A stretch of 43,309 bases of DNA from Oculatellaceae cyanobacterium bins.114 (GCA_033764315.1 JANRJA010000154.1:1-43309); one strand, 5' to 3'; shown: positions 1,507 through 15,493, numbered from the stretch's first letter. The notes: a model not told the origin generated them from the letters alone. Made by a program: numbers and translations.

Positions 1507-1684
1507 ATTGATTTCCTAGACATAACCAATGTGTGCTGACTCCTCATTATTGACAAGCTTTGATGAAAACTAGCACTTTTGCCCCATTTTTCGACGTTAC
1601 TTAACAAGAGTGTGAATTTTTTTTAATCTCTGGCCAAAACTACGGATTCAGACTACCAACCCACTAAAGCTTTCTGAAGCTCTA

Positions 1685-1777
1685 TATGGCAGTCCTAAAT
1701 CATTTGTGAGATTAGCACGTTGTGAGAGGTGTATCCTTCCGGGGTGCACCTCTCACAACTCATTTGGGATTGCTATA
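1685..1777. mobile_element. MITE with ~27-bp terminal inverted repeats
   Basis: Left end TATGGCAGTCCTAAATCATTTGTGAGA; right end reverse complement TATAGCAATCCCAAATGAGTTGTGAGA. Internal hairpin at 1720-1759. The same left end recurs at 42384. Confidence 0.8.
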
Positions 1778-1863
1778 GTTACTCTACCTCCAAGCCATTA
1801 ATCCTGAACGCAGAGCTTTGTCACGAAGAGATAGGGATCACAACGTTAATCCAAGGCGTCAAC

Positions 1864-3366
1864 CTAAGGCAAGCAATCCATGTAGGTGGCCATGTCCCAA
1901 TCAGTGGTTGTCGCCAAAAACTTCGCCCACTCATCCCGCTTATACCAGTCATACAGCATATACATTTCACCTGGCATGGCCGATTTAATTACATCATCTG
2001 CGGCCAGACGATCGAGTGCTTCTCCTAGCGACATGGGCAACTTCTTCACCTGTTTTCCGGCTTCCATCGCCTCATACAAGTTCCGCTGTTCGGGTGCACC
2101 CGGATCCAGTTTTTGTTGAATGCCATCATCAAAGGCTTTGAGTAGGGCAGATGCCATTAGATAGGGGTTCACCATTGAGTCAACCGCGCGATATTCAAAC
2201 CGTCCGGGAGCCGAAACACGCAAGCCACAAGTCCGATTTTGATAGCCCCAATCAGCATAGACGGGTGCCCACAATCCGGTGTCCCACAAACGACGATAAG
2301 AGTTCACGGTGGAACAGCCGATCGCAGTAAGAGCAGGTAAATGCTCAATTACACCACCGATGCAATATAGCCCAGTTTGTCCTGGAATGCGGCGATCGCT
2401 TGCTCCTGGCTCTGGTAAAAAGGTATTAGTTCCCCCTTTGTAATAGGTAAAGTTTTCCTCCAGTCCAGGTAGGGTTTCTAACGCAAAGGTCTTGATCGTT
2501 TCCTCACCGCCGCCCCAGAGCGATAGGTTATGGTGACACCCAGAGGCAGAGACTCCCATAAAGGGCTTTGACATAAAACAGGCGATCAAGTTAAATTCGC
2601 GGGCGACTTGGGCACAGATTTGGCGATAGGTCGTGAGGCGATCGCTCGTCCGCAACGCATCATCAAAAGTAAAGTTGAGTTCCAACTGTCCGGGTGCGTC
2701 TTCGTGGTCACCCTGAATCATATCCAAACCCATCGCGCGGCTATATTCGATCACCCGCAAAAAGACAGGACGCAACTCCTCAAACTGGTCAATATGATAA
2801 CAGTTGGGTTTTGTCACCCCACCTGCGGGTTTGCCATCGGGGCCTTTTTTCAGCCACATCATTTCGGGTTCACAACCGTGGCGCAAGTGCAACCCGTGAG
2901 CCGTTTGAAACTCCGCATGAATGCGTTTTAGATTACCGCGACAGTCAGCCGTGAGATAGGCACCGGGGTCTATTTCCTCTTCGCGATTGCGAAAACAAGT
3001 GCAAAAAACACGGGCAACCCGCTTATCCCAGGGTAGTTGACAAAAAGTTTCAGGATCGGGGATGGCAACCAGTTCAGCCGCTTCAGGGCCATAGCCGATG
3101 TAGTTGCGATGGCGATCGATAAACAGGTTTGCCATCGAGCCATAGACCAGTTGAATTCCTTTTTCAGCGATCGCCTCCCAGTGATCAGCAGGCACCCCTT
3201 TGCCCACTACGCGCCCTGTAACCGAAATGAATTGGTAATAAATGTATTGAATGCCCAACTGATCAATCTTGGCACGCACCTGTTTGACTAACTCGGCGCG
3301 CCCTTCTGCGGTGACATACGCTTCTAAGTCAGTCAGTGTTTCAGCTTTTGTTAGAACTCCTGTCAC
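1864..3366 (-). CDS. Glutamine synthetase-like protein, probable gamma-glutamyl-amine ligase (GmaS/PuuA-like function)
   Basis: GS catalytic motifs GCEPE, HEDAPGQLE, SGCHHNLS, YRRL, NRT, RFEYRAVD. The flap reads GLWAP instead of GYEAP. GTG start with GGAGGG RBS. Confidence 0.85.
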   Translation of the reverse strand: MTGVLTKAETLTDLEAYVTAEGRAELVKQVRAKIDQLGIQYIYYQFISVTGRVVGKGVPADHWEAIAEKGIQLVYGSMANLFIDRHRNYIGYGPEAAELVAIPDPETFCQLPWDKRVARVFCTCFRNREEEIDPGAYLTADCRGNLKRIHAEFQTAHGLHLRHGCEPEMMWLKKGPDGKPAGGVTKPNCYHIDQFEELRPVFLRVIEYSRAMGLDMIQGDHEDAPGQLELNFTFDDALRTSDRLTTYRQICAQVAREFNLIACFMSKPFMGVSASGCHHNLSLWGGGEETIKTFALETLPGLEENFTYYKGGTNTFLPEPGASDRRIPGQTGLYCIGGVIEHLPALTAIGCSTVNSYRRLWDTGLWAPVYADWGYQNRTCGLRVSAPGRFEYRAVDSMVNPYLMASALLKAFDDGIQQKLDPGAPEQRNLYEAMEAGKQVKKLPMSLGEALDRLAADDVIKSAMPGEMYMLYDWYKRDEWAKFLATTTDWDMATYMDCLP

Positions 3367-3405
3367 CGATCGCCCTCCAAATGAATTTTGCTACTTAATA
3401 AAACC

Positions 3406-3438
3406 AAATTGTTATATCAAGTTTGTATCCGTTAATAC
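3406..3438 (-). promoter_or_regulatory. Operator palindrome copy (AAATTGTTATATCAAGTT) plus adjacent NtcA box (GTA-N8-TAC)
   Basis: 3409-3420 TTGTTATATCAA is 1 mismatch from TTGTTATAACAA; 3425-3438 is GTATCCGTTAATAC. Both lie 40-70 bp upstream of the GS-like start and overlap the 3' end of the SBP gene. No clean -10 at the canonical spacing. Confidence 0.6.
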
Positions 3439-4173
3439 GGGTTGCTTGATTTCCTCTACAAACGGAAATGGCTTCCAGGGAATCCATCGTTCCCATAGTG
3501 TTGCAACCGTGCCATTGGCAATCAATGCATTGAGAGCCGATTCGATCGCTTGATGCAGAGCGACATTACCCTTTTGCACACCAATTCCAAACGGAACTCG
3601 GGTCGGCACCTCAAACGCCATTCGTAAACTCGCGTCTTCTTCTGCTGCAACGACTAATACCAACTCATCATCAATCAGGGCATCAATCTCCCCGTTTCGC
3701 AGTGCCTCTAGCATTTCAGGCAACACTTTGTCGCTGCCGGGATAGGGAACAACGGTGACACCGGGAAACGTGGCGGCGAGTGCCAGGTTGGTGCTATCTG
3801 CCAACCCTCCCACTCGCAAGCCAGCCAGATCTGCGGCTGACTGCACCGGACTCTCGACTTTGACTAATACCGACTCATCAAACAGCCCATAGGGGCGAGT
3901 AAAGTCAACCCACTGTTGCCGCTCTGGAGTGATGGCTTGATTAAACCACACCACATCGTAGTGACCTGTTTGCATAGAGGAATAAAACTTCTCCATGCGG
4001 GTGTTGTGCCAAATTGGTTCTAACCCTAGTTTTTGGCATACGAGGCGAGCTAGCTCTGGCTCATAACCCGATCGCTGTCCTTGCTCGACATAGGTCATAG
4101 GACGAGCATCAAAATCGCTAGCAACAATATGCAAATAGCCCGTTTCAACCGTTGAAAACGCTTGAGTGTTCAT
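3412..4173 (-). CDS. Polar amino acid-type (family 3) solute-binding protein, no signal peptide
   Basis: GYEPELARLVCQKLGL, AITPERQQWVDFTRPY, DLAGLRVG, L.NGEIDA, FGIGVQKGN..L...I..AL motifs. In-frame TGA 9 codons upstream of the ATG. Confidence 0.85.
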   Translation of the reverse strand: MNTQAFSTVETGYLHIVASDFDARPMTYVEQGQRSGYEPELARLVCQKLGLEPIWHNTRMEKFYSSMQTGHYDVVWFNQAITPERQQWVDFTRPYGLFDESVLVKVESPVQSAADLAGLRVGGLADSTNLALAATFPGVTVVPYPGSDKVLPEMLEALRNGEIDALIDDELVLVVAAEEDASLRMAFEVPTRVPFGIGVQKGNVALHQAIESALNALIANGTVATLWERWIPWKPFPFVEEIKQPVLTDTNLI

Positions 4174-4251
4174 GAATTGTAGGAATGCTGTAACGAGTCA
4201 ATCATGAGAATCAAATCTATACCAGCAACTATCTAAAAAAGACAATAGAGC

Positions 4252-4343
4252 GTAGCTGGAAATACATTTTTTCAGAGAAGTAAACTTATTATAACAAGTT
4301 AATGATTGCAGTAAGTTTGACACCAAAATGTAATTATCACTAC
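4252..4343. promoter_or_regulatory. Divergent promoter region: two NtcA boxes and an 18-bp operator overlapping both -10 elements
   Basis: GTAGCTGGAAATAC (4252-4265), 21 nt, then TATTAT (4287-4292) on +. TGTTATAAT extended -10 (4296-4288) on -. Palindrome AACTTATTATAACAAGTT at 4283-4300. Second box GTAATTATCACTAC at 4330-4343. Confidence 0.75.
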
Positions 4344-4390
4344 CAATCTGACGGGATTACGTTTGATGTTTAGAAACAACAGGATGACAT

Positions 4391-5296
4391 ATGGAATATC
4401 AACCCATTGATCTAACAGATGCACAACTTCAACAGTTTCAAGAAGATGGCTTTTTGATTCTGGAAAACTTTTTGCCCAAAGAATTGCCAGAAATATTAAT
4501 CGATCGAATGGGGCGTTTATTTTATGGAGAGTTTGAAACCGGAATCTATCCTGATGAATGGTATTGGCGACCTGGATTAAGTTTGCCCGACGTAACGCGA
4601 GAGATCTGTAATGCCTGGAAGTGTGATTTGGCGATCGCCAGTTTGGTGTTATCCGCTGAGATTGGTCGGCTTAGTGCCACCTTAGCTGGCTGGGAAGGAG
4701 CACGCATTGGACAAGACAGCATGTGGATGAAACCACCCCTCGCCAGTGCGATCGCCATGCATCAAGATGGTGCTTACATTGACTATCTAACTCCATCCCA
4801 GATGATGACCTGTTGGATTGCCTTAAACAATGCCACTGCTGCCGATGGCACGTTGGTCTATGCCAGAGGTTCCCATAAATGGGATTTAATTAACGTCGCG
4901 GGTGAGTTTCATGCCCCCACAAAAGACTATCGCTGGGCAATGCTGCAAGCCGCCGAAAAAGCGGGTGTTGATGAGCCAGAGATCGTGGTGGTAGAAGTGC
5001 CTGCGGGGGGATGCGCCTTTCATCATGGACGCACCTGGCATGGACTCTGCAAAACCACTCGTACCGAAGGCGTGTTCCACAGCATTGGCTTACATACGAT
5101 TCCCTCCAATGCTCAGTTTCACCCCACTAACAAAGCGGGTTATATCTATGGACGCTATAAGCGAGTCAACGATGTGGTGATGGATGAGAGTTTTTTCCCC
5201 ATTTTGTGGACAAAGGAGGGGTATCGATCGCCCTTTTTAGCAGATTATTGCAAGGATGCTTTGACTCCCAGCCTACTGGTATCTGGCGTACGTTAA
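4391..5296 (+). CDS. PhyH-family Fe(II)/2-oxoglutarate dioxygenase
   Basis: QF.EDGFLILENFL start, MHQD (HxD), TCWIALNNAT..DG.L....GSHKW, VPAGG..FHHG.TWHG. Confidence 0.88.
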   Translation: MEYQPIDLTDAQLQQFQEDGFLILENFLPKELPEILIDRMGRLFYGEFETGIYPDEWYWRPGLSLPDVTREICNAWKCDLAIASLVLSAEIGRLSATLAGWEGARIGQDSMWMKPPLASAIAMHQDGAYIDYLTPSQMMTCWIALNNATAADGTLVYARGSHKWDLINVAGEFHAPTKDYRWAMLQAAEKAGVDEPEIVVVEVPAGGCAFHHGRTWHGLCKTTRTEGVFHSIGLHTIPSNAQFHPTNKAGYIYGRYKRVNDVVMDESFFPILWTKEGYRSPFLADYCKDALTPSLLVSGVR

Positions 5297-5458
5297 CGTC
5301 AGTTTGGTTTAAGAGCCTAGCGAATAAATTCGCGGCTATAAGAGCGAAGTTCGCCTTCGCGAACTACAGAAAATCAAGGGTTGAGTGAACCGACGCAGGT
5401 CGGTTTTGCTCCTGTAGTTGCGGTTTCAACCGCCAAAATCCTTATCCCGAATTCACGT
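5296..5458. mobile_element. MITE with imperfect TIRs and 7-bp target duplication TACGTTA
   Basis: Ends ACGTCAGTTTGGT / rc ACGTGAATTCGGG. TACGTTA at 5289-5295 and 5459-5465. Internal REP-like hairpins related to 781-850 and 10257-10400. Confidence 0.75.
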
Positions 5459-5471
5459 TACGTTAATGCAA

Positions 5472-5504
5472 CAGATCTCCGGAATTCTAATAATTCCGGA
5501 GATC
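5472..5504. repeat. AGATCYCCGG...CCGGRGATCT hairpin repeat (possible bidirectional terminator)
   Basis: Perfect inverted repeat AGATCTCCGGAATT-ctaat-AATTCCGGAGATCT between convergent genes; same family at 13653-13685 and 29972-30038. Confidence 0.7.
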
Positions 5505-5527
5505 TAAAAGCGATAGAGCGATCGCCC

Positions 5528-5932
5528 TTATCTCATCCGACGCCCTTTACGAGCTCCTCTCCGTTTAGCGGTACGCCCTTTCGACCCTCCACCCAAACCG
5601 ACTAACCCTAATAGGGCAAGTGGTTGCCAGGTTGAGCGTTCAGAGCGAATTTCTTGAGAATGGCGAGGGTTAATCGCTTCACGGCGATCGGCCTGTGGGT
5701 TTAACAGTCCCATCACTGATGCAAACCCCGCCACTAGCAATAGCCCTATAGCTTTGACATCAGGTGACTTAGAAGATGTCTGAGTCATCCCAAAGGATGC
5801 ATAGAAAAAGTAGATTGTGATTAGCGCACTGATGATTAACAAAACGGTAATCATCGTCGGATTATTGGCGAAGGTATAGATGGGTCCTTCAGCACTAGAA
5901 AACTCTTCAAAGGTCGAAAATGGACTTGTCAT
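5528..5932 (-). CDS. Small membrane protein co-transcribed with amt
   Basis: Starts 10 bp after the amt stop; 2-3 hydrophobic segments and a basic C-tail. Confidence 0.75.
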   Translation of the reverse strand: MTSPFSTFEEFSSAEGPIYTFANNPTMITVLLIISALITIYFFYASFGMTQTSSKSPDVKAIGLLLVAGFASVMGLLNPQADRREAINPRHSQEIRSERSTWQPLALLGLVGLGGGSKGRTAKRRGARKGRRMR

Positions 5933-5941
5933 AAGTGGCTC

Positions 5942-7351
5942 TTACTCCGTTGCAAGCTCAGGTGAACCGATGGCAGTAGGTTGCGCTGATTTGCCCTTAG
6001 AACCTCCGGTCACAAAGGACATCGTGGCGTATTCTGGATAGCCTTCAACCCCTAAATCAGAGAGATCCAATCCAGTGATTTCTTCTTCATAAGGAACCCG
6101 CAACAGATTGAATTTCTTCAACAACCAACTTGTGCCATATCCAGGAATAAACCCTAAGAGAACAGTGCAAACTAAAGCACCGACAATTTGACCCACTAAG
6201 TTAATAGAAGGAATGCCATCGCCTTGAGGGAAGCCAGCCGCTGCAATACCCACGACGACAGAGCCAAATAAGCCACAGAAACCATGAACCCCAACCGCAC
6301 CCACGGCATCGTCGATACCCAATTTTTCAATCGCAAGGATCACTTTAGGCATACAGAAGGAGGCAATAAATGCTAGGACAATCACTAAAGCGGGGTGATA
6401 CACATCCATGCCTGCCCCAGTAGCAATAATGCCTGCCAGACCACCGGAAATGGTGAAGAATGGATCACTCTTGGAAGAGATGTATGCACCGACCAAACCA
6501 GCTGCCAGGGCAAGCGTTGTGCTCACTCCAATCGAAGCTAGCGTCATTGGCGTGCCATAGATCGTAAACTCTCCGGTATAACCCGGCAAGAAGATTAAGC
6601 ACGCGGCTAAAAATGCATAGAACCCGACAAAGATAAGCATCAGTCCCACCATAGTGAGCGGCAGGTTGTGAGGCAGAATCGGTCTAGGCTTACCATTGGC
6701 ATCATACTTGCCAATTCTGGGTCCGAGATTGAGCAACACACCCAACGTAAAGAAACCAGAGACTCCGTGGACGACCGCAGCGCACCCAAAATCGTGATAG
6801 CCCAACTGGGTAAACATCCAACCAAAAACGTTCCATCCCCAAGCGGCGGCAACAACCCAGGTAAATGACCCTAGGACAATTGACATAATCAAATAGGCAC
6901 CCACTTTGACCCGTTCGATCAGTGCACCCGACAAGATGGATGCAGTGGTCATTGCAAACAATGCAAAGGCAAAGAAGAAAACGCCTGTAATGTGATCAGC
7001 CGTATTTGGCCCCAACGCTGGTGACCAGGGATAGGAGGTCTCAACATAGGGCATGGCAGCCGCAACGGCTTCGCTCGCTTCTGGATTAGTCCAGGGTCCT
7101 AAAATGCCCCCCACAAATGGGAACAGAGGGAAGGCATTGTAGACCCACCAACCAAAAAAGAAAAATGCCAAACCGACACTCGCCAGGGTTAATAGGTTCT
7201 TCACCATAGTGGCGAGAACATTCTTAGTTCGGGAAGCTCCGCCTTCATACGCTAGAAAACCAGCGTGGATCAAAATCATGAAGACAGAAGCCCAGTAATA
7301 GAAACTTTCCGAGACAAATGTTCCTAGAAATTCTTGTGCTTCGGGAGACAT
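5942..7351 (-). CDS. amt: Amt-family ammonium/methylammonium transporter (divergent type)
   Basis: GF..YEGG.SR.KNV, SGALIERVK, DFGCAAVVH, LGPRIGKY, PHNLP, DDAVGAVGVHG with both pore His conserved; about 11 TM segments. Confidence 0.93.
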   Translation of the reverse strand: MSPEAQEFLGTFVSESFYYWASVFMILIHAGFLAYEGGASRTKNVLATMVKNLLTLASVGLAFFFFGWWVYNAFPLFPFVGGILGPWTNPEASEAVAAAMPYVETSYPWSPALGPNTADHITGVFFFAFALFAMTTASILSGALIERVKVGAYLIMSIVLGSFTWVVAAAWGWNVFGWMFTQLGYHDFGCAAVVHGVSGFFTLGVLLNLGPRIGKYDANGKPRPILPHNLPLTMVGLMLIFVGFYAFLAACLIFLPGYTGEFTIYGTPMTLASIGVSTTLALAAGLVGAYISSKSDPFFTISGGLAGIIATGAGMDVYHPALVIVLAFIASFCMPKVILAIEKLGIDDAVGAVGVHGFCGLFGSVVVGIAAAGFPQGDGIPSINLVGQIVGALVCTVLLGFIPGYGTSWLLKKFNLLRVPYEEEITGLDLSDLGVEGYPEYATMSFVTGGSKGKSAQPTAIGSPELATE

Positions 7352-7661
7352 GGCTTAATGCAAAGGGTATTGCGATCAGAAGTTTGCAGTTGAACTCAAT
7401 CAAAGGGGGACTCGATAACAGTCTGGACAATTTTGATCAAACAGAGATTCAACAGAAATGAGACATTTGAGAGCGATCGCGACAAAAGCCAATATGACGT
7501 CCTCAACAATCTCTTGCAAATGCAGTTTTCACCAAAATGCTTGCCCAAACTGTACCCAAAACTCCGCTAGATTCCGACTAAAAACTATATTTAGCGGAAA
7601 TCTATGAGAATGATAGAGAACCTTTGATATCAAAAATCAGACACGAATTAAAGATGAAGCA

Positions 7662-7703
7662 AATATAAAATTGACTTGTTATAACAAATGTATTCTAATT
7701 AAC
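7662..7703 (-). promoter_or_regulatory. NtcA-type class II promoter for amt with embedded perfect operator TTGTTATAACAA
   Basis: On -: GTT-N8-TAC (7703-7690), 22 nt, TATATT (7667-7662). The palindrome at 7676-7687 lies in the spacer. Confidence 0.7.
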
Positions 7704-7899
7704 CATTTCAAATATTTCAGCAGTTTATCTTCAATCATACAAACTGCCCGTTTAGCAATGACCGTCCGACTCTAGACGCCGAGATATTATGGCTTCCCAC
7801 TGCTTTTTAAAGGCAGTAGTTTACTTTGGTAAATGGGCAGCAGATTAGTAAAGCACTCTAAAAACCCAAGCCTGCCGCCAGTACGGTTAAAAGTTTTTT

Positions 7900-9327
7900 A
7901 TGACAACAAAGATTTGGAATCAAGAAGAATATTGGGGATTGGGTTATGACTTTGACCCGCAGTGGACGTTGACTGCCGCTCAACAAACATTGCAAGCCAA
8001 ATTGATTGAGATATGTGCTACGGTTCTACGTCCCAATGCGATTGAGAGCGATCGCTCCTTGATCTATCCTCGTAAAAATTTTGAGGCACTGGCATCCCTC
8101 GGATTATTGGGATTATTTGTGCCAAAAGAATGGGGCGGATTAGGCGAAAATCACGTCTGTGCAGCCATGATTGTCGAGACAATTGCTCGCTATGGGTGTC
8201 CCAGTACAGCCATGTGCTACACCATGCATTTAGGTGCAACAGCCGCCGCTCTATTTCGAGCACACGAGAGTCCTAGTCTGCAAAACCTGTTACAGCGGCT
8301 CGATCAAGAGGTGTTAATCGGCACTCTCTCCTACTCTGACCCTGAAACTGGATCGCACTTTTGGTATCCCGTCTCCTCTAAAGCCGAGCAGATGAGTGAT
8401 TCTTGGCAGGTCTTCAAAAAAGCCTCGTGGACAACCTCAGCCGGATTCGCTGATTGGTACATTGTGCAAACCACGAGTCCGGAATTTGACGGCAATTATG
8501 CTGACCTCTCGTGCTTCTTGATCTATCGGGATGAGGTGCAAGCCGAACCCCACAAGTGGGATGCATTAGGCTTACGGGGCAATCAATCAGGCACGTTGCT
8601 GGTGGATGGTATCACCGTTCCCCTCGATCGCATGGTGGGGACTAAAGGCGACGGCACTGCCTCTAATGACGAAATTGTTGACCCGTTCTTTTTGCTCTGT
8701 TCGTCTGCGTGCTGGAATGGCATTGCAATGGGGGCGATCGATATTGCCAAACGCCATGTCACTCGCAAAAAGCACGTTGATGTGGGTATGCGCGTTGCTG
8801 ACTATCCAACGATCCAAGATTACTTTGGTGAAGCCATCATCGACACCAATGCTTGTCGCATGTTTACCCTGTCAATGGGGCAGTTAATGGATAATTTGAC
8901 CAATCATTGCGACTGGTCGATTCACGCTGACCTCAGTGCACTGCCGCGATCAACCTACTTGCCCTGGTATTGGCAAATCAAGTTTGCAGCCGCTAAAAAT
9001 GTGGCACATGTTTGTGACAAAATGCTGCATGCCTGCGGTGGATCGGGCTTTAAAAAAGATATGGAGATCGAACGCTATCTGCGGGATGGCAAAGCGGGTT
9101 GGGTTATGGGTCCCACTAATGAAGTGTTGCGGCAGTTTGTGGGCAAGCTAGCCCTACTCGGATTTGATGCCCTCGACTATTGGAACCAGAACGTCAATGA
9201 GCGGGTTCTCAACAACGAAGTGAAAAAACTGGATGCTGACGGCAAACGACAACTAGCAGAACAGTTATTAGCACAAGCTGCCGCAGAAGAGGAAGCTTCT
9301 AAAACTTTAGTGAGCAGTGGGGTGTAG
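7900..9327 (+). CDS. Acyl-CoA dehydrogenase-fold flavoprotein (non-canonical; possible amine oxidoreductase/monooxygenase)
   Basis: LGLLGLFVPKEWGGLG, SYSDPETGS, K.SWTTSAGFADWY, WDALGLRGNQSG, GGSGF......ERYLRD. The usual IYEGT reads VMGPT. Confidence 0.85.
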   Translation: MTTKIWNQEEYWGLGYDFDPQWTLTAAQQTLQAKLIEICATVLRPNAIESDRSLIYPRKNFEALASLGLLGLFVPKEWGGLGENHVCAAMIVETIARYGCPSTAMCYTMHLGATAAALFRAHESPSLQNLLQRLDQEVLIGTLSYSDPETGSHFWYPVSSKAEQMSDSWQVFKKASWTTSAGFADWYIVQTTSPEFDGNYADLSCFLIYRDEVQAEPHKWDALGLRGNQSGTLLVDGITVPLDRMVGTKGDGTASNDEIVDPFFLLCSSACWNGIAMGAIDIAKRHVTRKKHVDVGMRVADYPTIQDYFGEAIIDTNACRMFTLSMGQLMDNLTNHCDWSIHADLSALPRSTYLPWYWQIKFAAAKNVAHVCDKMLHACGGSGFKKDMEIERYLRDGKAGWVMGPTNEVLRQFVGKLALLGFDALDYWNQNVNERVLNNEVKKLDADGKRQLAEQLLAQAAAEEEASKTLVSSGV

Positions 9328-9433
9328 GGTAGGGATGATGCAGTGTGCAACACTATTAATTTTATCTCTGCACACTGGATCACTCTCGCAGTATCATTAG
9401 CCATCACCGATCGCATAGATATCAGGAGAGAGT

Positions 9434-10231
9434 ATGACCGAAGCAACCGTCGGAACTCTAGTGTCGCTGTGGCGTTATCCTGTGAAGTCAATGATGGGGG
9501 AAGAATTGAATGCCTCTGTTATCACAGAAGAAGGCTTGTTGGGCGATCGCACCTATGCCTTGATTGACAATCATGGTAAAACTGTCAGTGCCAAATCTCC
9601 GCGCAAGTGGGGCAAGATGTTTGACTGTAGAGCCTCTCTGGAAACTCTCTCACAGGTCAAAATTACCCTGCCAGATGGCACTGTTGTGTTGAGTCATGTC
9701 GATGAGGTTGATCAGGTGCTCTCACAGGCTTTTGGGCAACTTGTCAAATTAGAGGCGATCGCCCCTGCTGAACCCAGCATTGAGATGTATACTCCCGATA
9801 TTGATGGCTTGCCCGATCAAGATCAAATCACGGATGCTGCCATTCAACCAAGCACATTTTTTGATGCCGCTACGGTGCATCTGCTTACCACTGCCACCAT
9901 GAACCAGCTTCAAACCTTAGCTCCTGGTTCTCGATTTGAGACGCGCCGTTTTCGTCCTAACCTGGTGGTGCAACCCACTAACAGCACTACTGGATTTGTT
10001 GAGAATGACTGGGTCGGCAGAACTCTGGCGATCGGCGATGAAGTTCGTCTCAGTGTGACGAGTCCCTGTCCTCGCTGTGTCATGACAACAATGGCGCAAG
10101 GCGAGCTACCCAATGATTTAAATATTCTAAAAACTGCCATGCAACACAATCAGGGCAACATTGGGATTTACGCCAGTGTGATGCAGGGTGGCACAATTCG
10201 ACGGGGAGATACTGTTACGGTTTTAGAGTGA
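9434..10231 (+). CDS. MOSC-domain molybdoprotein (YcbX/mARC-like)
   Basis: LWRYPVKSM.GE, GDR.YAL, RRFRPNLVV, PCPRCVMTT, GIYA.V..GG.IR.GD; AGGAG RBS. Confidence 0.92.
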   Translation: MTEATVGTLVSLWRYPVKSMMGEELNASVITEEGLLGDRTYALIDNHGKTVSAKSPRKWGKMFDCRASLETLSQVKITLPDGTVVLSHVDEVDQVLSQAFGQLVKLEAIAPAEPSIEMYTPDIDGLPDQDQITDAAIQPSTFFDAATVHLLTTATMNQLQTLAPGSRFETRRFRPNLVVQPTNSTTGFVENDWVGRTLAIGDEVRLSVTSPCPRCVMTTMAQGELPNDLNILKTAMQHNQGNIGIYASVMQGGTIRRGDTVTVLE

Positions 10232-10256
10232 ATTGTAGTTTTGCGATCGCTCGTCA

Positions 10257-10400
10257 GCATTGGCAACTAAAGTCGCAGCTACACGAGCAAAACCTGCCTC
10301 CGCAGGTTACAGGAAGCCTGAATTGACTTGAGCTAGCAACGGTGGACTTGGTTCTTGTAGTCGCGGTTTTAACCACCAAAAACTTCTCAGACATCCTCTA
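10257..10400. repeat. Dispersed REP/MITE-like repeat, copy 3
   Basis: Similar to 781-850 (inverted) and to the interior of the 5296-5458 element; ends ACTTCTCAGACATCCTCTA. Confidence 0.75.
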
Positions 10401-10429
10401 ACATCTGCCCTTTAACCTCTATTCTGTTT

Positions 10430-12286
10430 ATGCTTCTCGACATCAAACAACTTGACGTATTTCACCCCTCTCTTCCTAAACCGTTGGGATTGGTGGTCGC
10501 CGAGTATTGGATCGAGGGTGGAACGGCGATCGCCTACCCCGTTAAAGCAGGGCAATACGTTCAAATTTTGGATGTGGAAGGGTGTCAGTGCTCTGACCTG
10601 GTTGCTTTTACTGGAGAGCAATATGAAGAGGAACTGGATGCCACTGTTACCCGCACGCTCAATGGTTTGTCACTGCCTGTGGCAGGGTTGCATGGCAAAT
10701 ACTTCTCACAACACATGCAGCCGCTGTTAGAGGTGATTCAAGATACCTGCAATCGCCACGACAGTTTCTTTTTGGCGTGTACGGCACGTTACTACGAAGA
10801 TTTAGGCTATCCCGGTCATCCCAGTTGCAGTGACAACTTCAATCAGGTGTTGCAGCCTTACGGCATTGCTCCTCGTTTGGGGTGGAGTGCGATCAATTTT
10901 TTCTATAACACTGCCGTTGAGGAGACAGGGGCGATCGCTGGAGGTGAGTCGTGGTCACGTCCAGGTGACTACGTGTTGCTGCGTGCCCATCGCGATCTGC
11001 TCTGCGCCAGTTCCTCCTGTGCCGATGACATCGACTCTGTGAATGGCTGGAATCCAACTCCTATTTTGATTCGGGTCTATGATGCTGAAGCCGAGTTTTC
11101 AAGGGCGATCGGGCGACGAGTCTCTGCGATCGCCCCTCTACGGCTGACCCAACCCAGTGCCTTCACGCCCCGAATTCAGCAATTGACTAACAATCTGGTG
11201 GAATATAACGGCTTTTGGGTGCCCAACAGTTTCACCAATCACGGCATTCAAGATGAATATTGGGCATTGCGCGAACGAGCCGTGTTGCTTGATTTGTCGG
11301 CTCTGCGTAAGTTTGATGTGGTAGGAAAAGATGCCTTTCGTTTATTACAACTGGCTTTCTCGCGGGATGTCAGCAAACTCAACGTGGGGCAGTCGGCTTA
11401 TGGGTGTTTGCTCAATCCTCATGGAGGCATTGTCGATGATGGCATTGTGTTTTGTCTGAGGGAATCGCACTATCGCTATGTGGGCAATTGCGACAGTGAT
11501 GCTGACTGGTTGACGCGAGTTGCAGATCAACACGGCTTTGGCGTTGAGGTTCATCCCTGTAGTCATGTGCTCCACAATCTGGCAATTCAAGGGCCCTTGT
11601 CTCGACAAATTTTGCGATCGCTCACCCAGTTTGATCCGCAGTTCCAGGGATTCACCCTCGATGACCTGCCTTATTTTCACTTTGTCACTGGAACCGTTGC
11701 CAATATCCCTGTCTTGATCTCCCGTACCGGCTACACCGGAGAATTGGGCTATGAGATTTTTGTGCACCCTGACTACGGCATTGCTCTGTGGGATGCGCTG
11801 ATGACAGCAGGAGCACCCGTTGGACTGCAACCGATGGGCATGTTGGCACTCGATCGCGCCCGCATCGAAGCTGGACTGTTAGCGGCAGGACGCGAATTTG
11901 ATGACCTGACCTCGCCTTATCAAGCGGGAATCGGTTGGGCAGTGGCGATGAAAAAGCCTGATTTCATGGGTAAAGCAGCTTTAGAACAGATTCGACCCCA
12001 TCCTCCCAGGGTGACGGTTGGACTGGTGTTAGAGGGTAACGAGGTTGCTGCCGGGGGGCAGTGCATTCACCCATTGGGAGAACGTTGGCGCGTCGGCACC
12101 ATCACCAGTGGCACCTTTTCACCCATCCTCAATCGCAGCATTGCTCTGGCACAAGTCACCCCCGAATATGCTGAACTGGGAACTGTGTTAGAAGTTGGCT
12201 TGGTGGATGGCATGATTCGCCGTGTTAGAGCTACCGTTGGCACCCTTGCCGCCTATGACCCCACTAAAAGCCGAGTCCGATCATGA
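10430..12286 (+). CDS. tdm: DUF1989 + GcvT (THF-binding) protein, TMAO demethylase (Tdm)-like
   Basis: DTCNRHDSFFLAC.ARYYEDLGYPGHPSCSDNFN...WSRPGDYVLLRA..DL.C.SSSCADD followed by a GcvT domain (DLSALRKF, DDG, SRTGYTGELGYE, RIEAGL, YDP.K.R.RS). The gene symbol rests on motif recognition only. Confidence 0.8.
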   Translation: MLLDIKQLDVFHPSLPKPLGLVVAEYWIEGGTAIAYPVKAGQYVQILDVEGCQCSDLVAFTGEQYEEELDATVTRTLNGLSLPVAGLHGKYFSQHMQPLLEVIQDTCNRHDSFFLACTARYYEDLGYPGHPSCSDNFNQVLQPYGIAPRLGWSAINFFYNTAVEETGAIAGGESWSRPGDYVLLRAHRDLLCASSSCADDIDSVNGWNPTPILIRVYDAEAEFSRAIGRRVSAIAPLRLTQPSAFTPRIQQLTNNLVEYNGFWVPNSFTNHGIQDEYWALRERAVLLDLSALRKFDVVGKDAFRLLQLAFSRDVSKLNVGQSAYGCLLNPHGGIVDDGIVFCLRESHYRYVGNCDSDADWLTRVADQHGFGVEVHPCSHVLHNLAIQGPLSRQILRSLTQFDPQFQGFTLDDLPYFHFVTGTVANIPVLISRTGYTGELGYEIFVHPDYGIALWDALMTAGAPVGLQPMGMLALDRARIEAGLLAAGREFDDLTSPYQAGIGWAVAMKKPDFMGKAALEQIRPHPPRVTVGLVLEGNEVAAGGQCIHPLGERWRVGTITSGTFSPILNRSIALAQVTPEYAELGTVLEVGLVDGMIRRVRATVGTLAAYDPTKSRVRS

Positions 12287-12783
12287 GTCATCGTTCGATT
12301 TATGCCAATTTGTTGTGGGATGTCGCCGGAGTGGATGGCTTGCAGGTGATGAAGACTCTGTTTGGCGACCAGTGCGATCGCATTGCTCCGTTTCAGTCAT
12401 TTGAGGCAGAGCTAGACCACACACCTTGTTCTGTGTTGCGATTGTGTGAGGGCAACTTTCGGATTCGTTGGGCGGGCGATGCCGATCACCTCAAGTCGAT
12501 GCTATATTCCGTGACCACCGATCAGCGAGTTTGGGTCAAACAGTTTCCCTGGCTGGTATCAGTCCAGTTGCCTCACACCTTAGACACGGTGAAATTGTCT
12601 CAAATGGCGATCGCCAAACTTCCCTTTTCGCTGACATCCCTTGCGCTTAACTGTGCTGCTCCTGCCCGTATCGAAACCCTATCTGTCCTGGTTTGGCGAC
12701 ACACGCTGCAAACCACTGAAACCCTGGAACTCCACACCGCAAGAAAATCCCTCGAAATGCTAGAACACAGTTTAGCCCTGTGA
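12283..12783 (+). CDS. Sarcosine oxidase gamma / GcvT N-terminal-like small protein
   Basis: Start overlaps the tdm stop (ATGA). WDVAG.D...VM..LFG...F....L....CSVLRLCE.NFRI resembles the folate-binding fold; the assignment is tentative. Confidence 0.55.
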   Translation: MSHRSIYANLLWDVAGVDGLQVMKTLFGDQCDRIAPFQSFEAELDHTPCSVLRLCEGNFRIRWAGDADHLKSMLYSVTTDQRVWVKQFPWLVSVQLPHTLDTVKLSQMAIAKLPFSLTSLALNCAAPARIETLSVLVWRHTLQTTETLELHTARKSLEMLEHSLAL

Positions 12784-12810
12784 AGCCATGCGCTTTGGGG
12801 CGATCGCTCT

Positions 12811-13248
12811 TTAGGTAGAAAACTTTTGGTTCTGACAATTTCGCATCAAAGCTTGAAATCCAGCTTGCACAAAATGCTTGTCATAGGCAAGAGCCTCTGC
12901 AATTGCCTGTTTTTCCATAACCTTAAAAGAGACACAATCAGTCTGGCTCCATTCCTTGTCAGGTCGCTGTTTATACAGGGTGAGTGCAGCTTGAAATTGC
13001 AAACTGGTTTGAGGAATGATGGTTGTATTGGGATGTTGATATAGCTTTTCGATTAGATTAACTGCAACTTTTCGGAAGAAATCACCGCGATCGCTAAAAT
13101 CATTCAATACTTCAGTCAAAACCATTTCAGTTGTAACGATATGAGCAGGTTGAATGTTTTGAGAGAGTTGCTGTGCTTTTGTGTGTAAGTCATCACGAGG
13201 ATTCATTAATGCAACCCAGTAACCCGTATCTGCAAATACAACTCTCAT
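12811..13248 (-). CDS. vapC: PIN-domain toxin (VapC family)
   Basis: VFADTGYWVAL...D..H, TTEMVLTE, S.TDC.SF..M...I.EAL.YDKHF.QAGF. Confidence 0.9.
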   Translation of the reverse strand: MRVVFADTGYWVALMNPRDDLHTKAQQLSQNIQPAHIVTTEMVLTEVLNDFSDRGDFFRKVAVNLIEKLYQHPNTTIIPQTSLQFQAALTLYKQRPDKEWSQTDCVSFKVMEKQAIAEALAYDKHFVQAGFQALMRNCQNQKFST

Positions 13249-13577
13249 TCGTCATTCCGTTGTTTTTGATAAGTATCAAAGTTTCTGGCGAGGTCAGTCG
13301 GCAATTTAGCCCATTCTTCATCGGGAACTTGAGCAGAAATTTCGGCAACTAATTCCCAAATTGGTTGAGCATCTGAGTCAAACAGCAATTGATTCGTTAC
13401 TGGTTCGCTCAATGAAGGAGTTTCAAATTGAGTCAGTGGGTCATTTGCCGTTTTGGTGTCTGACTCTTCCAATAAAACAATTAAGCGTATCCGACCCGGA
13501 TGAGACACCTGTAATGGTTGATCTAGCGTTAGTCGCCCTGTAGGGTCGATTGTTCCAGTGACTTCAAAGGCTTGCAT
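13245..13577 (-). CDS. Putative antitoxin partner of VapC
   Basis: 4-bp overlap with vapC. MQAFEVTGTID..G.L.LD.PL N-terminus and PIWE....I...VP.EEW.KLPTDLA.N.D.Y C-terminus are typical of cyanobacterial TA-associated proteins. Confidence 0.7.
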   Translation of the reverse strand: MQAFEVTGTIDPTGRLTLDQPLQVSHPGRIRLIVLLEESDTKTANDPLTQFETPSLSEPVTNQLLFDSDAQPIWELVAEISAQVPDEEWAKLPTDLARNFDTYQKQRNDE

Positions 13578-13652
13578 AGGGTTCTCAAAAGAAAAGAGAT
13601 ATCAGAATTCTAGCAAGGGGCGATCGCTCTTTAATATCGATTCGCTCATCCC

Positions 13653-13685
13653 AGATCCCCGGAATCTTGAAGCTTCCGGGGATCT
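13653..13685. repeat. AGATCCCCGG hairpin repeat
   Basis: AGATCCCCGGAA-tcttgaagc-TTCCGGGGATCT inverted repeat. Confidence 0.7.
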
Positions 13686-13722
13686 AGAACCCGTCAATTT
13701 AAGATCACGGTCGGAGCGAAAG

Positions 13723-14085
13723 TCATCGCGCAAGACAGAACCAAAGAACAAAGACCCATGTTTTTAAAGCGTCTCCCCAATGGGCAACTGCACCATCAAG
13801 ATCCTCATCTATTTTGCTTTGAACTTCTGCCTGTTTTAATTCATCGGGTGAGTAAACCTGGAAGAATATTGAATCATCCCGAAATAATCCATCACACTTG
13901 CGATCGCCAATCTTTCCATAAGGACGAACTCGTATGAATCCGGGTTTAGCCCATACCATAATGTCTTCAAAGAGTCCTTGAAAGGCATCACCCAGTCCTT
14001 CAAGGCACCGAAGCTTGAATTCCTTATAGTGCTCGTAAGTGGTAAGGTCGTATTCGTTAGGTTTGCTCTCTGAAGATTCACTCAT
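13723..14085 (-). pseudogene. Truncated PD-(D/E)xK restriction-endonuclease-like domain (ABC-3C-type effector N-terminus)
   Basis: G.AFQ.LFEDIM......F..VRPYG..GD.KCDG.......FQVYSP......KI.ED..GA..HW.....WVFV, then an unrelated tail and stop at 120 aa. Confidence 0.55.
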
Positions 14086-14213
14086 ATCAGCATAGTAATG
14101 AGTTAGCTCATTTGTTTAGAGGCTAATGTTCTAGCCCCTTTTCTACCTACAACGAGTATTTTAGCGATTTCAAGCAGCGATCGCCCTCTGACCCTCATCA
14201 TTCGCCTTTTGAT

Positions 14214-14420
14214 CTCTGAACTCCAACCTTTTTATTCCAACCTCCGACCTCTGAACTCGGAACCTCGACCTCTGAACTTCAACCTCCGACTTCTGAACCC
14301 GGAACCTCGACCTCTGAGCTCCAACCTCCGACCTCTGAGCTCCAACCGTCGACCTCTGAACTCCAACCGTCGACCTCTGAACTCCAAACTTCGAGCATTT
14401 TGCCCCAACCGTCGAGTTCT
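14214..14420. repeat. Heptamer-based tandem repeat (21-bp higher-order unit)
   Basis: About 9 degenerate units such as CTCTGAA-CTCCAAC-CGTCGAC; STRR-like. Confidence 0.85.
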
Positions 14421-14480
14421 AATCCCAATTTAACCCACAACGATTACAGATCATTAGAACCAATGCGAAGCGCGTCTTTG

Positions 14481-14612
14481 GGGTGAACCGAAACACCGTC
14501 TGCCAGAGGGTTTGGGGGAGGCAGTGACGTCCCTCAATGGGGGTTTGGGAGAGACTCCCCAATGCCTGGTTTTCACATTTGGGTGAATTGAAACACCGTC
14601 TGCTAGAGGGTT
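14481..14612. repeat. 32-bp direct repeat, two copies 100 bp apart
   Basis: GGGTGAACCGAAACACCGTCTGCCAGAGGGTT (14481) vs GGGTGAATTGAAACACCGTCTGCTAGAGGGTT (14581), flanking a GGGGGTTTGGGAGAGACTCCCCAA hairpin. Confidence 0.75.
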
Positions 14613-14738
14613 CAGGAGCACCCCAGAAAAAAGCCTTCAGTGGTGGGTTTTATCTTTTAACAGAGGGATGTCAAAGAGTTGAGTTAAGCTAGATCAGGAC
14701 TTATTGTCAGCTCAGTCACACGTCCCTGAACCAATTCA

Positions 14739-15464
14739 ATGCAACTTCCCCTCCACCTGATCATCTCAGAACAACTTCGGGAGCAAATTACAAACGGTGA
14801 GTTTCAACCAGGAGCACAACTCCCCAGCGAACATCAATTGATGTCTGATTTTGACGTTAGCCGCATCACCGTTAGACGAGCGATCGCCAATTTGGTTAAT
14901 CAGGGCTTAGTTTCATCCCATCGAGGCAAAGGAGTCTTTGTTAAAGAACAACGCAAAGTAACCTATTCACTCTCTAGCCCGATGGTCTTTTTTGAAGAAG
15001 ACATGACACGACAAGGAGTGACCAGTTCGATTCAAAATTTAGTCTTTGAAGCTGTGATTGCACCTGCCGAAGTACAACAAAAATTACAACTTACTTCTCA
15101 TCAAAAAACAGTTTATTTACAGAAAAAATTATTGTTGTTAGATGATACTCCCGTTGGGGTTGACATCACTTACATTACTGCGGATTTAGGAAAACAATAT
15201 GCAGATGATTTACAACAGCAAATGACATTTCCCACATTAGAACAACATGGTGTTTTTATTGAACGAGTTGAAGCCGTGTTGGGATGCACACGTGCAGATT
15301 ATGAAACAAGTGAATATTTAGATGTGCCATTAGGTGATCCGTTGTTAGTCTATAGTCACACGGCTTACACCATTGATAACCGTCCGATTGTTTGTGGAGA
15401 AGCTCTCTCCAGGGGCGATCGCCTGTGTTACTCCATCAATCTTTTAAAGCAAGACACAGTTTAA
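14739..15464 (+). CDS. GntR-family regulator, HutC/UTRA subfamily
   Basis: PG.QLPSE.QL...F.VSR.TVRRA...L...GL.....GKG.FV wHTH plus a UTRA-like C-terminal domain; 241 aa. Confidence 0.93.
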   Translation: MQLPLHLIISEQLREQITNGEFQPGAQLPSEHQLMSDFDVSRITVRRAIANLVNQGLVSSHRGKGVFVKEQRKVTYSLSSPMVFFEEDMTRQGVTSSIQNLVFEAVIAPAEVQQKLQLTSHQKTVYLQKKLLLLDDTPVGVDITYITADLGKQYADDLQQQMTFPTLEQHGVFIERVEAVLGCTRADYETSEYLDVPLGDPLLVYSHTAYTIDNRPIVCGEALSRGDRLCYSINLLKQDTV

Positions 15465-15493
15465 ACGATGCATTTTACTACACAAGCAATACT

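Follow-up and report, generated by a model that had tools for sequence, protein, structure and literature searches.

A conserved gene cluster around a trimethylamine N-oxide demethylase-like protein in an Oculatellaceae cyanobacterium and its proposed role in nitrogen scavenging from methylated amines

Gene content of the cluster and its Tdm-like enzyme

We analysed a contig of 43,309 nucleotides (nt) from Oculatellaceae cyanobacterium bins.114 (GCA_033764315.1, JANRJA010000154.1:1-43309), the whole of which is called the window here. The window is contig C84 of a 6.64-Mb genome in 251 contigs, which is 90.7% complete and is labelled G000; other genomes, contigs and loci carry labels beginning with G, C and L, respectively. 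Positions 1864 to 15464 hold ten genes, which encode a glutamine synthetase (GS)-like protein of 500 amino acids (aa; GS-500), a protein with the SBP_bac_3 fold (SBP-fold protein), a PhyH-family dioxygenase, a 134-aa membrane protein, an Amt-family transporter, a flavoprotein with the acyl-CoA dehydrogenase (ACAD) fold, a MOSC enzyme, a protein resembling Tdm, the demethylase of trimethylamine N-oxide (TMAO), a 166-aa protein and a GntR-family regulator. A preliminary description of this DNA had reported the ten genes as co-located; all ten open reading frames (ORFs) were found at the coordinates given below, with families assigned by Pfam and NCBIfam, and they are conserved in related cyanobacteria. 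Here we consider this cluster as a possible regulon for obtaining nitrogen from trimethylamine (TMA), TMAO and lower methylamines such as dimethylamine (DMA).

The Tdm-like protein (10430-12286, + strand) consists of a DUF1989 zinc core followed by GCV_T and GCV_T_C domains (PF09347, 151.7 bits; PF01571, 227.4 bits; PF08669, 52.8 bits), which is the domain order of Tdm. It matches the cryo-EM chains 9q59 and 9q5a of Paracoccus TDM with 580 bits over residues 178-787 of the 9q59 chain. In the Paracoccus enzyme, zinc is bound by C285, C301 and C365, TMAO and DMA are contacted by D220, F327 and D367, and folate is contacted by R480, F582, F672 and K782 (PMC13619132). Compared with this enzyme (structures 9Q59, 9Q5A and 9Q5L), the window protein has the same three-cysteine DUF1989 zinc core, the same D220/D367 pair and a GcvT-like folate domain with R480, F582 and K782, as read from a phmmer alignment to 9q59, and it differs in having Tyr at F327 and Trp at F672. 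In the window protein, the zinc and Asp positions are D56, C117, C133, C197 and D199; none of them varies among the 24 homologues aligned, and the consensus of these homologues at the F327 position is INFFFNT, so that Phe is kept by most of them. The second difference lies at the N-terminus. The window protein has 618 aa, compared with 793 aa in Paracoccus, and residues 1 to ~165 are absent; the alignment starts at chain residue 178, and the ORF begins about 13 residues ahead of the aligned core. In Paracoccus TDM, the N-terminal 150 residues are poorly conserved, yet they are required for soluble assembly, and deletion of residues 1-150 leads to aggregation (PMC13619132).

The shortened form is common to the cyanobacterial proteins, all of which have ~600-640 aa and no N-terminal domain, and the Amycolatopsis and Rhodospirillales homologues have 807 and 812 aa. 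In the tree, 19 of 19 cyanobacterial Tdm-like sequences form one clade with 100/100 support, which spans the two gene contexts described below (Tmm-type and ACAD-type) and stands on a long branch from the proteobacterial and actinobacterial homologues. From the domain order and the conserved residues we conclude that the protein is, as far as sequence comparison can tell, a real N-oxide demethylase with the TDM active site; it is not filed as a confirmed equivalog because it falls short of the family score cut-off and lacks the N-terminal domain. By homology, it would split TMAO into DMA and formaldehyde and pass the one-carbon (C1) unit to tetrahydrofolate.

The 166-aa protein is encoded directly downstream (12283-12783, + strand), and its start overlaps the stop codon of the Tdm-like gene by 4 nt. 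The two genes follow each other in this order in 13 of the 14 cyanobacterial loci of our synteny set, the 14th being cut inside the Tdm-like gene, and also in L029, L030, L031, L040 and L041; no 166-aa gene was found beside the two non-cyanobacterial Tdm homologues. The protein gave no match in Pfam, NCBIfam or PDB sequences (the latter searched at E up to 10). When 1.84 billion representative proteins were searched with a profile, 61 family members were retrieved, 60 of them with 47-223 aa and the 61st, a marginal match at E 3.3e-4, with 545 aa; among these representatives, no member is fused to a protein of Tdm length. We considered that the protein might be the split-off N-terminal domain of Tdm, an idea that sequence comparison did not support: hhalign against the first 200 aa of the Tdm of L021 gave a probability of 0.1; hhalign against a 267-aa ORF of contig C16, a putative MgdD, gave nothing. 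The preliminary description had called the protein SoxG-like, a label that received no support from hidden Markov models: the SoxG model PF04268 had no match in the genome, and its positive control gave none either. The sole support for the label comes from a language-model Atlas, in which the protein scores 0.89-0.90 to clusters with SoxG in 12-13% and GCV_T in 29-76% of their members, and this placement is a lead in its favour. We infer that the 166-aa protein may be a small subunit that docks on the GcvT-like domain and functionally replaces the missing N-terminal domain, in which case the Tdm-like enzyme probably acts together with this co-translated protein.

The 14 loci of the synteny set are mostly short contigs, and a missing gene often means a gene that was not covered. 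Besides the 166-aa gene, the neighbours of the Tdm-like gene were the ACAD gene in 11 loci, the Amt and 134-aa genes in nine, the PhyH, SBP-fold and GntR genes in five each and GS-500 in three. Sequence identity across the loci is 81-90% for the ACAD-fold protein, compared with 67-83% for the Tdm-like protein, and the gene order is kept across at least three cyanobacterial families. The closest homologues bear names that point to filamentous cyanobacteria of the Leptolyngbya/Elainellaceae type, and the cluster is present in records of Cyanobacteria bacterium FACHB-502, Nodosilinea sp. LEGE 07088, Stenomitos frigidus and Oculatella sp. LEGE 06141, among others. In the marine loci L015, L016, L018 and L022, the ACAD and Tdm-like genes stand about 2.5 kb apart; the interval in L022, the only one annotated, holds a copper primary-amine oxidase (NF008559, 993 bits), and L022 additionally contains genes for DUF6885, a second GS-like protein, two more PhyH proteins, a class-I glutamine amidotransferase (GATase) and a CN-hydrolase. 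In an even sample of 301 genomes from the whole phylum, the Tdm-like gene is present in four, one of them G000. In the family, it is present in 21 of 57 genomes (17 of the 38 high-quality ones); these 57 are every genome of the order, and they belong to a single family. These synteny data, together with the NtcA-box and operator comparisons below, uphold the earlier proposal of a co-conserved methylated-amine nitrogen regulon around a Tdm-like enzyme. The author of the proposal had also been aware of no such pathway characterised in cyanobacteria, and in the titles and abstract openings of the literature searched, we likewise found no published cyanobacterial Tdm or N-methylglutamate cluster. 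Trichodesmium is the one cyanobacterium that the papers found discuss; for T. erythraeum, a preprint reports only Tmm and GmaS homologues, and the organism is thought there to depend on epibionts (10.1101/2021.03.10.434842).

Predicted operator sites, NtcA boxes and the GntR regulator

Both strands of the window were scanned for the operator pattern CTTRTTATAACAAR with up to two mismatches. Seven strand-matches were obtained, compared with a mean of 0.94 in shuffled sequences, and none of 100 shuffles reached seven. The matches represent three palindromic sites, at 3408, 4285 and 7675, and one further site at 17583; the three palindromes are all intergenic and fit CTTGTTATAACAAG with two, one and one mismatches, respectively. 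The first, O1 (ATTGTTATATCAAG, 3408..3421), is located between the SBP-fold and GS-500 genes, 4 nt from an NtcA-type box (GTATCCGTTAATAC, 3425..3438) that is a candidate internal promoter element for GS-500, and its counterparts in L015, L016 and L030 have the equal offset of +16 to an NtcA box. NtcA-activated promoters have the consensus GTAN8TAC about 22 nt upstream of a TAN3T -10 box. This layout is found, as a prediction from spacing judged by eye, in the divergent PhyH/SBP intergenic region, where the box GTAGCTGGAAATAC (4252..4265) is followed 21 nt downstream by a -10-like hexamer, TATTAT, facing PhyH. The second operator, O2 (CTTATTATAACAAG, 4285..4298), overlaps this hexamer, and orthologous sites are present in the PhyH/SBP intergenic region of L015, L016, L022, L030 and L040. 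A second NtcA-type box (GTAATTATCACTAC, 4330..4343) lies in the same region, and L007 also has two such boxes there. The third operator, O3 (CTTGTTATAACAAA, 7675..7688), lies in the divergent Amt/ACAD region, and a perfect TTGTTATAACAA core occurs upstream of the ACAD gene in L010, L012, L014, L019, L033, L040 and L041.

For a comparison across species, the 12-mer core was searched in a total of 333.5 kb, made up of the window and 20 related loci from cyanobacteria. With up to two mismatches allowed, this yielded 36 operator-like sites. Among the 26 sites placed by eye, 22 are directly upstream of the ACAD, Tdm-like, Amt, PhyH/SBP, GS-500 or Tmm genes or of neighbouring cluster genes. The shared operator of the preliminary description is thus confirmed both by the shuffles and by the palindromes at orthologous promoters. 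Its NtcA boxes fared differently on the two scales. In the window alone, GTAN8TAC has five matches against 3.65 expected, a number that 27 of 100 shuffles reach and that is not significant, and three of the five boxes (3425, 4252 and 4330) are beside operator sites; across the loci, a perfect NtcA box lies within 60 nt of 14 of the 36 operator-like sites, compared with about 0.6 expected from a box density of 0.138 per kb. The spacing between operator and box is also recurrent: the two are 4 nt apart (+16/-18) in the window, L015, L016 and L030, offset by -43 at the promoter of Amt in L015, L016, L017, L018 and L022, and offset by about 33 between the PhyH and SBP genes in the window, L030 and L040. 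Because the operators are conserved and the spacing to the NtcA boxes recurs across species, a shared operator and nitrogen control are supported by comparative evidence, the sites themselves being predicted.

The presumed ligand of the palindromes is the GntR-family regulator (14739-15464, + strand), which is HutC/PhnF-like with a UTRA domain (PF00392, 72.6 bits; PF07702, 76.1 bits; 124.5 against the PhnF model TIGR02325, under its cut-off of 156.8). Its gene adjoins the cluster in L010, L011, L012, L014, L019, L030, L040 and L041. Winged-helix and UTRA domains in the protein and a palindrome conserved at orthologous promoters are the features of a GntR/HutC repressor and its operator, and we presume from them that the regulator is a repressor that binds these palindromes. 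In the predicted scheme, NtcA would switch the regulon on under nitrogen shortage, and the GntR/UTRA repressor would keep it off through the palindrome (A/C)TTGTTATAACAA(G/A). Elsewhere in the genome, an operator search beside the GmaS-type genes of C188 and C49 gave only sites with two mismatches, none of them at promoters. The genome has a single perfect 14-nt operator palindrome (C105:23865). It falls within the 3' end of a gene for a HEAT-repeat (PBS lyase-like) protein, away from any obvious promoter, and was not counted as a site of the regulon.

Candidate enzymes for the trimethylamine, dimethylamine and methylamine steps

The ACAD-fold flavoprotein (7900-9327, + strand; 475 aa) contains three ACAD domains (PF02771, PF02770 with a score under its cut-off, and PF00441/PF08028). 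It is extended by about 60 aa at the C-terminus, has some 35 aa inserted and lacks the catalytic glutamate. The IYEGTN motif of the ACADs 8i4p, 7w0j and 4m9a, which carries the glutamate in YEG, aligns to VMGPTN, so that Glu is replaced by Gly in VMGPTNE; what we take to be the alternative glutamate position, that of the isovaleryl-CoA dehydrogenase (IVD) type, aligns to Phe in the window protein, as read from the alignment. In the Atlas, generic ACAD clusters only were retrieved, the nearest being auto-named 'dibenzothiophene monooxygenase'.

The flavin enzyme expected to supply TMAO from TMA is Tmm, and the statement of the preliminary description that the window lacks a Tmm partner holds for the genome as sequenced: no protein of the 90.7%-complete G000 exceeds the NF058570 cut-off of 675, the only pieces resembling flavin-containing monooxygenases (FMO) are at C10:4-447 (a contig edge, 33.1 bits to NF058570) and on C178, and tblastn with the Tmm of G017 against G000 gave nothing. 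In the complete genomes G017 and G200, the situation is reversed. Both have a Tmm gene (798 and 770 bits to NF058570) beside the Tdm-like and 166-aa genes, their clusters also contain PhyH, the SBP-fold protein and GS-500, and neither genome has an ACAD orthologue; in G000 and G158, the ACAD gene is present and no Tmm was found. In the 57 genomes of the family, the Tdm-like gene occurs in 21, the ACAD gene in 17, Tmm in six and an MgsC-like gene in 28. Among the 21 genomes with the Tdm-like gene, 15 have the ACAD gene, five have Tmm beside the Tdm-like gene, none has both and one has neither (G305, 79% complete). ACAD and Tmm are thus mutually exclusive in the Tdm-positive genomes, and they have a similar position beside the Tdm-like gene. 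From this exclusivity and the absent catalytic glutamate, the simplest reading is that the ACAD-fold protein would replace Tmm, as a non-orthologous replacement by an amine N-oxygenase. The specific proposal that it oxidises TMA to TMAO in place of Tmm is one we put forward tentatively, at somewhat under even odds.

The gene also occurs in other states and settings. In G330 (C493 and C225), the ACAD gene is split with two TGA codons and MgsC is in two pieces, which may indicate decay, as may the Tmm match restricted to residues 1-167 in G346 (C1:4953645). At G242:C3:3286608-3288008 (L039), the ACAD gene stands alone among AAA_35/GGDEF, collagen-repeat and phage-tail-repeat genes.

The next step, the use of DMA, is carried out by DmmDABC in known pathways; according to PMC5520151, dmmDABC is absent from SAR11 and many marine bacteria, and the DMA step is a recognised gap. 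In G000, the Pfam models DmmA-like_N and DmmA-like_C had no match, the control of the C-terminal model being silent and DmmB, DmmC and DmmD not being searched; a scan of the Rhodospirillales locus L021 for Dmm found none there. Three proteins of the cluster are candidates for this gap. GS-500 (1864-3366, - strand) is a GS-like protein and putative gamma-glutamyl-amine ligase (Gln-synt_C, 260 bits; 298.4 against TIGR03105, type III GS, under its cut-off of 469.6). PMC7948447 gives Asp177, Glu186 and Arg312 as catalytic in GmaS, with Trp in place of Glu at the Glu-flap position. When GS-500 was aligned to the GmaS structures 7cql and 9qur, the motifs DHEDA, GQLELNF and NRT and the flap Trp were all present; where GmaS has the Asp of DHEDA and the flap Trp, true GS, here of archaeal origin, has His and Glu. 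About 50 aa are inserted in GS-500, whose identity across families (L015, L016, L022, L029, L030 and L040) is 80-84% and which occurs next to canonical GmaS-type genes in L030 and L041. By these sequence features, GS-500 is a paralogue distinct from canonical GmaS, with GmaS-like active-site features.

The second candidate, the PhyH-family Fe(II)/2-oxoglutarate dioxygenase (4391-5296, + strand; PF05721, 70.8 bits), has an HQD motif recognised by eye and is a candidate oxidative N-demethylase. The third, the SBP-fold protein (3412-4173, - strand; PF00497, 99.4 bits), was listed as an SBP in the preliminary description, but it is not part of a transporter: its N-terminus, MNTQAFSTVETGYLHIV, is the mature domain from the start with no signal peptide, so that the protein is cytoplasmic, and the window has no gene for an ABC permease or ATPase (BPD_transp, ABC_tran). 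For the same reasons, a role as the binding protein of a TMAO ABC transporter (TmoX-like) was rejected. The SBP-fold gene is always beside PhyH and GS-500 where sequence is available, and the trio is kept together in ACAD-type as well as Tmm-type clusters. In the mechanism that we propose, GS-500 would gamma-glutamylate DMA or methylamine, and PhyH would hydroxylate an N-methyl group, which would leave as formaldehyde; the product would be gamma-glutamylmethylamide for the Mgs enzymes, or glutamine in Tmm-type genomes without Mgs. That the trio closes the DMA gap in this way is a doubtful proposal, less secure than the one for the TMA step.

Ligase, oxygenase and gamma-glutamyl hydrolase together are the logic of the Puu, Ipu and arylamine pathways, and comparable genes are present at other loci of G000 and its relatives. 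The stretch C68:6794-9510 (L042) comprises two PhyH paralogues in tandem and, running in the opposite direction away from them, a class-I GATase/Peptidase_C26-like gene. The operator-like site TTGTTATAACAT (C68:7668) lies between this gene and the paralogues, and the stretch is probably a second locus of the regulon. By analogy, the oxygenase and hydrolase of C68 and the GS-like ligases elsewhere in G000 could make up a gamma-glutamyl amine pathway set. On C49 (L037, 6247-11027), genes for a Rieske ring-hydroxylating oxygenase alpha subunit, a GmaS-type GS, an ABC permease and an alpha/beta hydrolase stand in a row, which may be another pathway for gamma-glutamyl amines or quaternary amines. 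In L030 (12725-16277, G200), an operator-like site is followed by genes for a membrane protein of the fatty-acid-desaturase family, an alpha/beta hydrolase and a canonical type III GS (654 bits), and a Peptidase_C26 gene lies beside the GntR gene of the same locus; these are extra regulon members in a Tmm-type genome without Mgs.

The downstream half of the pathway appears to be the known one. Contig C16 of G000 carries, in this order, purU, a soxB-family gene (482.6 bits, cut-off 529.45), a soxA-family gene of 1016 aa (807.4 bits, cut-off 1164), the 267-aa ORF, which has no family match, and genes for a GlmS/PurF-like amidotransferase, a GXGXG (FwdC-like) protein and a glutamate-synthase FMN-domain (GltB-like) protein. 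As assigned by general domain models, this order fits mgdABCD followed by mgsABC. In G321, one stretch holds soxB-like, GS-500, SBP, PhyH, 134-aa and Amt genes and then ACAD, Tdm-like, 166-aa, GntR, mgsA, mgsB and mgsC genes, and the mgsA-like gene has an operator immediately ahead of it; in G325, mgdC, the 267-aa ORF, a GmaS-type gene and mgsABC adjoin GntR, 166-aa, Tdm-like and ACAD genes. The C16 genes and this contiguity indicate that the downstream half is the known pathway, and the wholly different enzyme set envisaged in the preliminary description is no longer tenable. A canonical dmm/mgs/mgd pathway elsewhere in the genome, which that description had named as a competing account, is found in its mgs- and mgd-like parts and, with the DmmA-like models only, not in its dmm part. 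By homology, the nitrogen of monomethylamine would pass through gamma-glutamylmethylamide and N-methylglutamate by means of the mgs/mgd-like genes of C16. An integron integrase (TIGR02249, 481.9 bits, above cut-off) adjoins the purU-mgd-mgs cluster at C16:150-1127 (L025), and the cluster may be mobile.

The remaining members of the cluster are an importer and an accessory enzyme. The divergent Amt-family transporter (5942-7351, - strand; PF00909, 208 bits; 210 against TIGR00836, under its cut-off of 343) is only 26-31% identical to the other Amt proteins of G000 and is a candidate importer of methylammonium or methylated amines. Its partner, the 134-aa membrane protein (5528-5932, - strand), has two hydrophobic stretches, a basic tail and no Pfam family, and its gene is downstream of Amt in nine of the 14 loci and in L030 and L040; together, the two proteins would import methylated ammonium ions. 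The molybdenum-cofactor enzyme (9434-10231, + strand) has MOSC_N and MOSC domains and a PCPRC motif seen by eye. It was found at 65% identity or more in only two of the 14 loci (L011 and L012) and is an optional cluster member, which might reduce stray N-oxide or N-hydroxy intermediates.

The part of the window that separates the 166-aa gene from GntR contains a PIN-domain ORF and two small ORFs (110 aa and 120 aa). The PIN-domain ORF (145 aa; 22.3 bits to PF01850, slightly short of the cut-off) overlaps the final part of the 110-aa ORF upstream of it, and the pair (12811-13577, - strand) looks like an inserted toxin-antitoxin pair; in L011, L012, L014 and L019, GntR directly follows the 166-aa gene, and in L040 (12808-13522, G321) GntR matches occur in two pieces, possibly through decay. 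Upstream of GntR, there is a tandem repeat with a period of 21/42 bp and about 7.6 copies (14236-14415), followed at 14470-14620 by two copies, seen by eye, of an element of about 40 nt starting with GTGAA(C/T)(C/T)GAAACACCGTCTGC. The flanks (118-1506 and 15494-20709) contain a peroxiredoxin-like gene, a DUF6918 gene, a 287-aa ORF without a family, a PAS/GAF histidine kinase (863 aa) and an AAT-family acyltransferase-like gene, and none of these flank genes recurs in the related loci. An Rfam scan of positions 1-20000 at E up to 0.1 found no riboswitch and no other RNA family.

Interpretation, competing explanations and meaning

The comparisons above support a real, conserved regulon under nitrogen control, a variation of the known TMA/TMAO pathway in an unexpected phylum. 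On the comparisons made here, it would be a nitrogen-scavenging regulon for TMA, TMAO and lower methylamines, in which a known demethylase and a known downstream pathway are combined with unfamiliar enzymes at two steps, a reading to which we give a probability of roughly 0.55. The stronger version, in which both steps take place as proposed, with the ACAD-fold protein oxidising TMA to TMAO and DMA being handled without DmmDABC by GS-500 and PhyH, is considerably less probable, at about one chance in five.

Several observations weigh against this reading. First, the Tdm-like protein scores 810.4 bits against the TMAO demethylase model NF053776, under the equivalog cut-off of 1100 and over model positions 147-763 only, and it has no counterpart of the domain whose deletion aggregated Paracoccus TDM. 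Second, the ACAD-fold protein is closest to true acyl-CoA dehydrogenases (98.8 bits), with 50 bits for N-oxygenases such as DnmZ, and no flavin reductase was recognised in the cluster. Third, MgsC is present in 16 of the 17 ACAD-positive genomes and in none of the six Tmm-positive ones; the ACAD-type genomes are thus nearly the MgsC-positive set, so that the exclusivity of ACAD and Tmm may partly reflect lineage. Tmm is also found in only three genera, and related genomes are not independent. Fourth, G242 (99% complete) has an ACAD protein that is 87% identical, no Tdm-like gene and an unrelated neighbourhood around the ACAD gene, and two more ACAD-positive genomes (72% and 84% complete) are without Tdm. 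In addition, two genes of G000 pass TIGR03105 as canonical GmaS-type genes (C49, 586.9 bits; C188, 582.9 bits), the 12-mer operator core with up to one mismatch occurs at 27 sites genome-wide, no operator-like site was found in the mgd/mgs cluster of C16, and, as G000 is 90.7% complete, a missing tmm or dmm gene is not proven absent.

Some of these observations would suit an explanation in which the cluster serves methylated amines as proposed and the ACAD-fold protein oxidises DMA, replacing DmmDABC, or acts on an intermediate of the N-methylglutamate pathway. On this view, the cell would import TMAO already formed, GS-500 would simply be another isoform of GmaS, and the part of PhyH would be a minor one. 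The near coincidence of ACAD with MgsC, the lack of a DmmA-like domain match in G000, the occurrence of ACAD without Tdm in G242 and the GmaS catalytic features of GS-500 all agree with it. However, ACAD and Tmm share the same place beside the Tdm-like gene with no co-occurrence in the 21 Tdm-positive genomes, canonical GmaS-type genes are already present in G000 and in L041, and such an assignment would leave Tmm-type genomes without a DMA enzyme and ACAD-type genomes without a TMA oxidase. We consider this explanation improbable, to about the same degree as the stronger version above.

A slightly less probable explanation is that the substrate is not TMAO and that the cluster is a module of a broader gamma-glutamyl amine-catabolic island, acting on another tertiary-amine N-oxide or on an N-hydroxylated or N-methylated compound, for example a longer dimethylalkylamine oxide, an N-methylated polyamine or an amino alcohol. 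The sub-cut-off score and long branch of the Tdm-like proteins, the Tyr at F327 in the window protein, the presence of a MOSC enzyme and the additional genes of the marine variants (the copper primary-amine oxidase, second GS-like protein, two PhyH proteins, GATase and CN-hydrolase) are consistent with a different substrate. On the other hand, the other residues through which TDM contacts its substrate are all conserved, Phe stands at 327 in most orthologues, bona fide Tmm accompanies Tdm-like proteins of the same clade, and N-methylglutamate genes are joined to the cluster in G321 and G325. Finally, chance neighbourhood or horizontal co-transfer without a common function, with fortuitous palindromes and boxes, might be argued from the unenriched NtcA pattern of the window and the 27 genome-wide core sites, but it is hardly credible given an operator count unmatched in 100 shuffles, sites that recur at the orthologous promoters of many genera, always at set distances from NtcA boxes, and a gene order shared by at least three families.

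In Ruegeria pomeroyi and Methylocella silvestris, TMA is oxidised aerobically through Tmm, Tdm, DmmDABC, GmaS, MgsABC and MgdABCD, with an Amt gene nearby. Compared with this pathway, the nitrogen-scavenging pathway that we favour has a Tdm homologue, mgd/mgs-like genes with purU, GmaS-type genes and Amt in common, likewise would pass C1 units to tetrahydrofolate, and includes Tmm in sister cyanobacteria. It differs in several respects: in G000 an ACAD-fold flavoprotein is at the place of Tmm and no Tmm or DmmA-like domain was found; the cyanobacterial Tdm-like protein is without the N-terminal domain and has a separate 166-aa partner; and a 500-aa ligase, PhyH, a cytoplasmic SBP-fold protein and MOSC are additional. 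The host is a phototroph, which would use the pathway for nitrogen, and the predicted control is by NtcA and a GntR repressor, unlike the TmaR/TmoR control given in PMC13390433.

Two further groups of known systems are relevant to the unfamiliar steps. Amine pathways with gamma-glutamylation include those for putrescine (Puu), isopropylamine (Ipu), aniline and 1-naphthylamine. As in these pathways, GS-like ligases, oxygenases and class-I GATase/Peptidase_C26-like hydrolases come together in L022, L030 and C68, whereas the cyanobacterial oxygenases are PhyH-family Fe(II)/2-oxoglutarate enzymes in the context of methylamine genes. ACAD-fold flavin enzymes of group D include the monooxygenase DszC, the N-oxygenases DnmZ and KijD3, and nitroalkane oxidase. 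These enzymes and the window protein share the ACAD fold without the ACAD catalytic glutamate, but the window protein is more similar to true ACADs than to DnmZ or DszC and has no recognised flavin reductase in its cluster.

Methylated amines are a sizeable pool of organic nitrogen and precursors of climate-active gases, and their aerobic breakdown is ascribed to heterotrophic Proteobacteria. If a complete, NtcA-controlled pathway is present as proposed, mat- and crust-forming filamentous cyanobacteria would directly consume the nitrogen of TMA and TMAO. That Tmm and the ACAD-fold protein trade places in nature directs attention to specific proteins for the TMA step, as the conserved trio of ligase, PhyH and SBP-fold protein does for the DMA step; if the proposal is true, these ACAD-fold and ligase/PhyH enzyme types would be linked to methylamines for the first time. 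In particular, the step by GS-500 and PhyH, if it takes place, would suggest how bacteria with tmm, tdm and gmaS that lack dmm might get past their known 'DMA bottleneck'.

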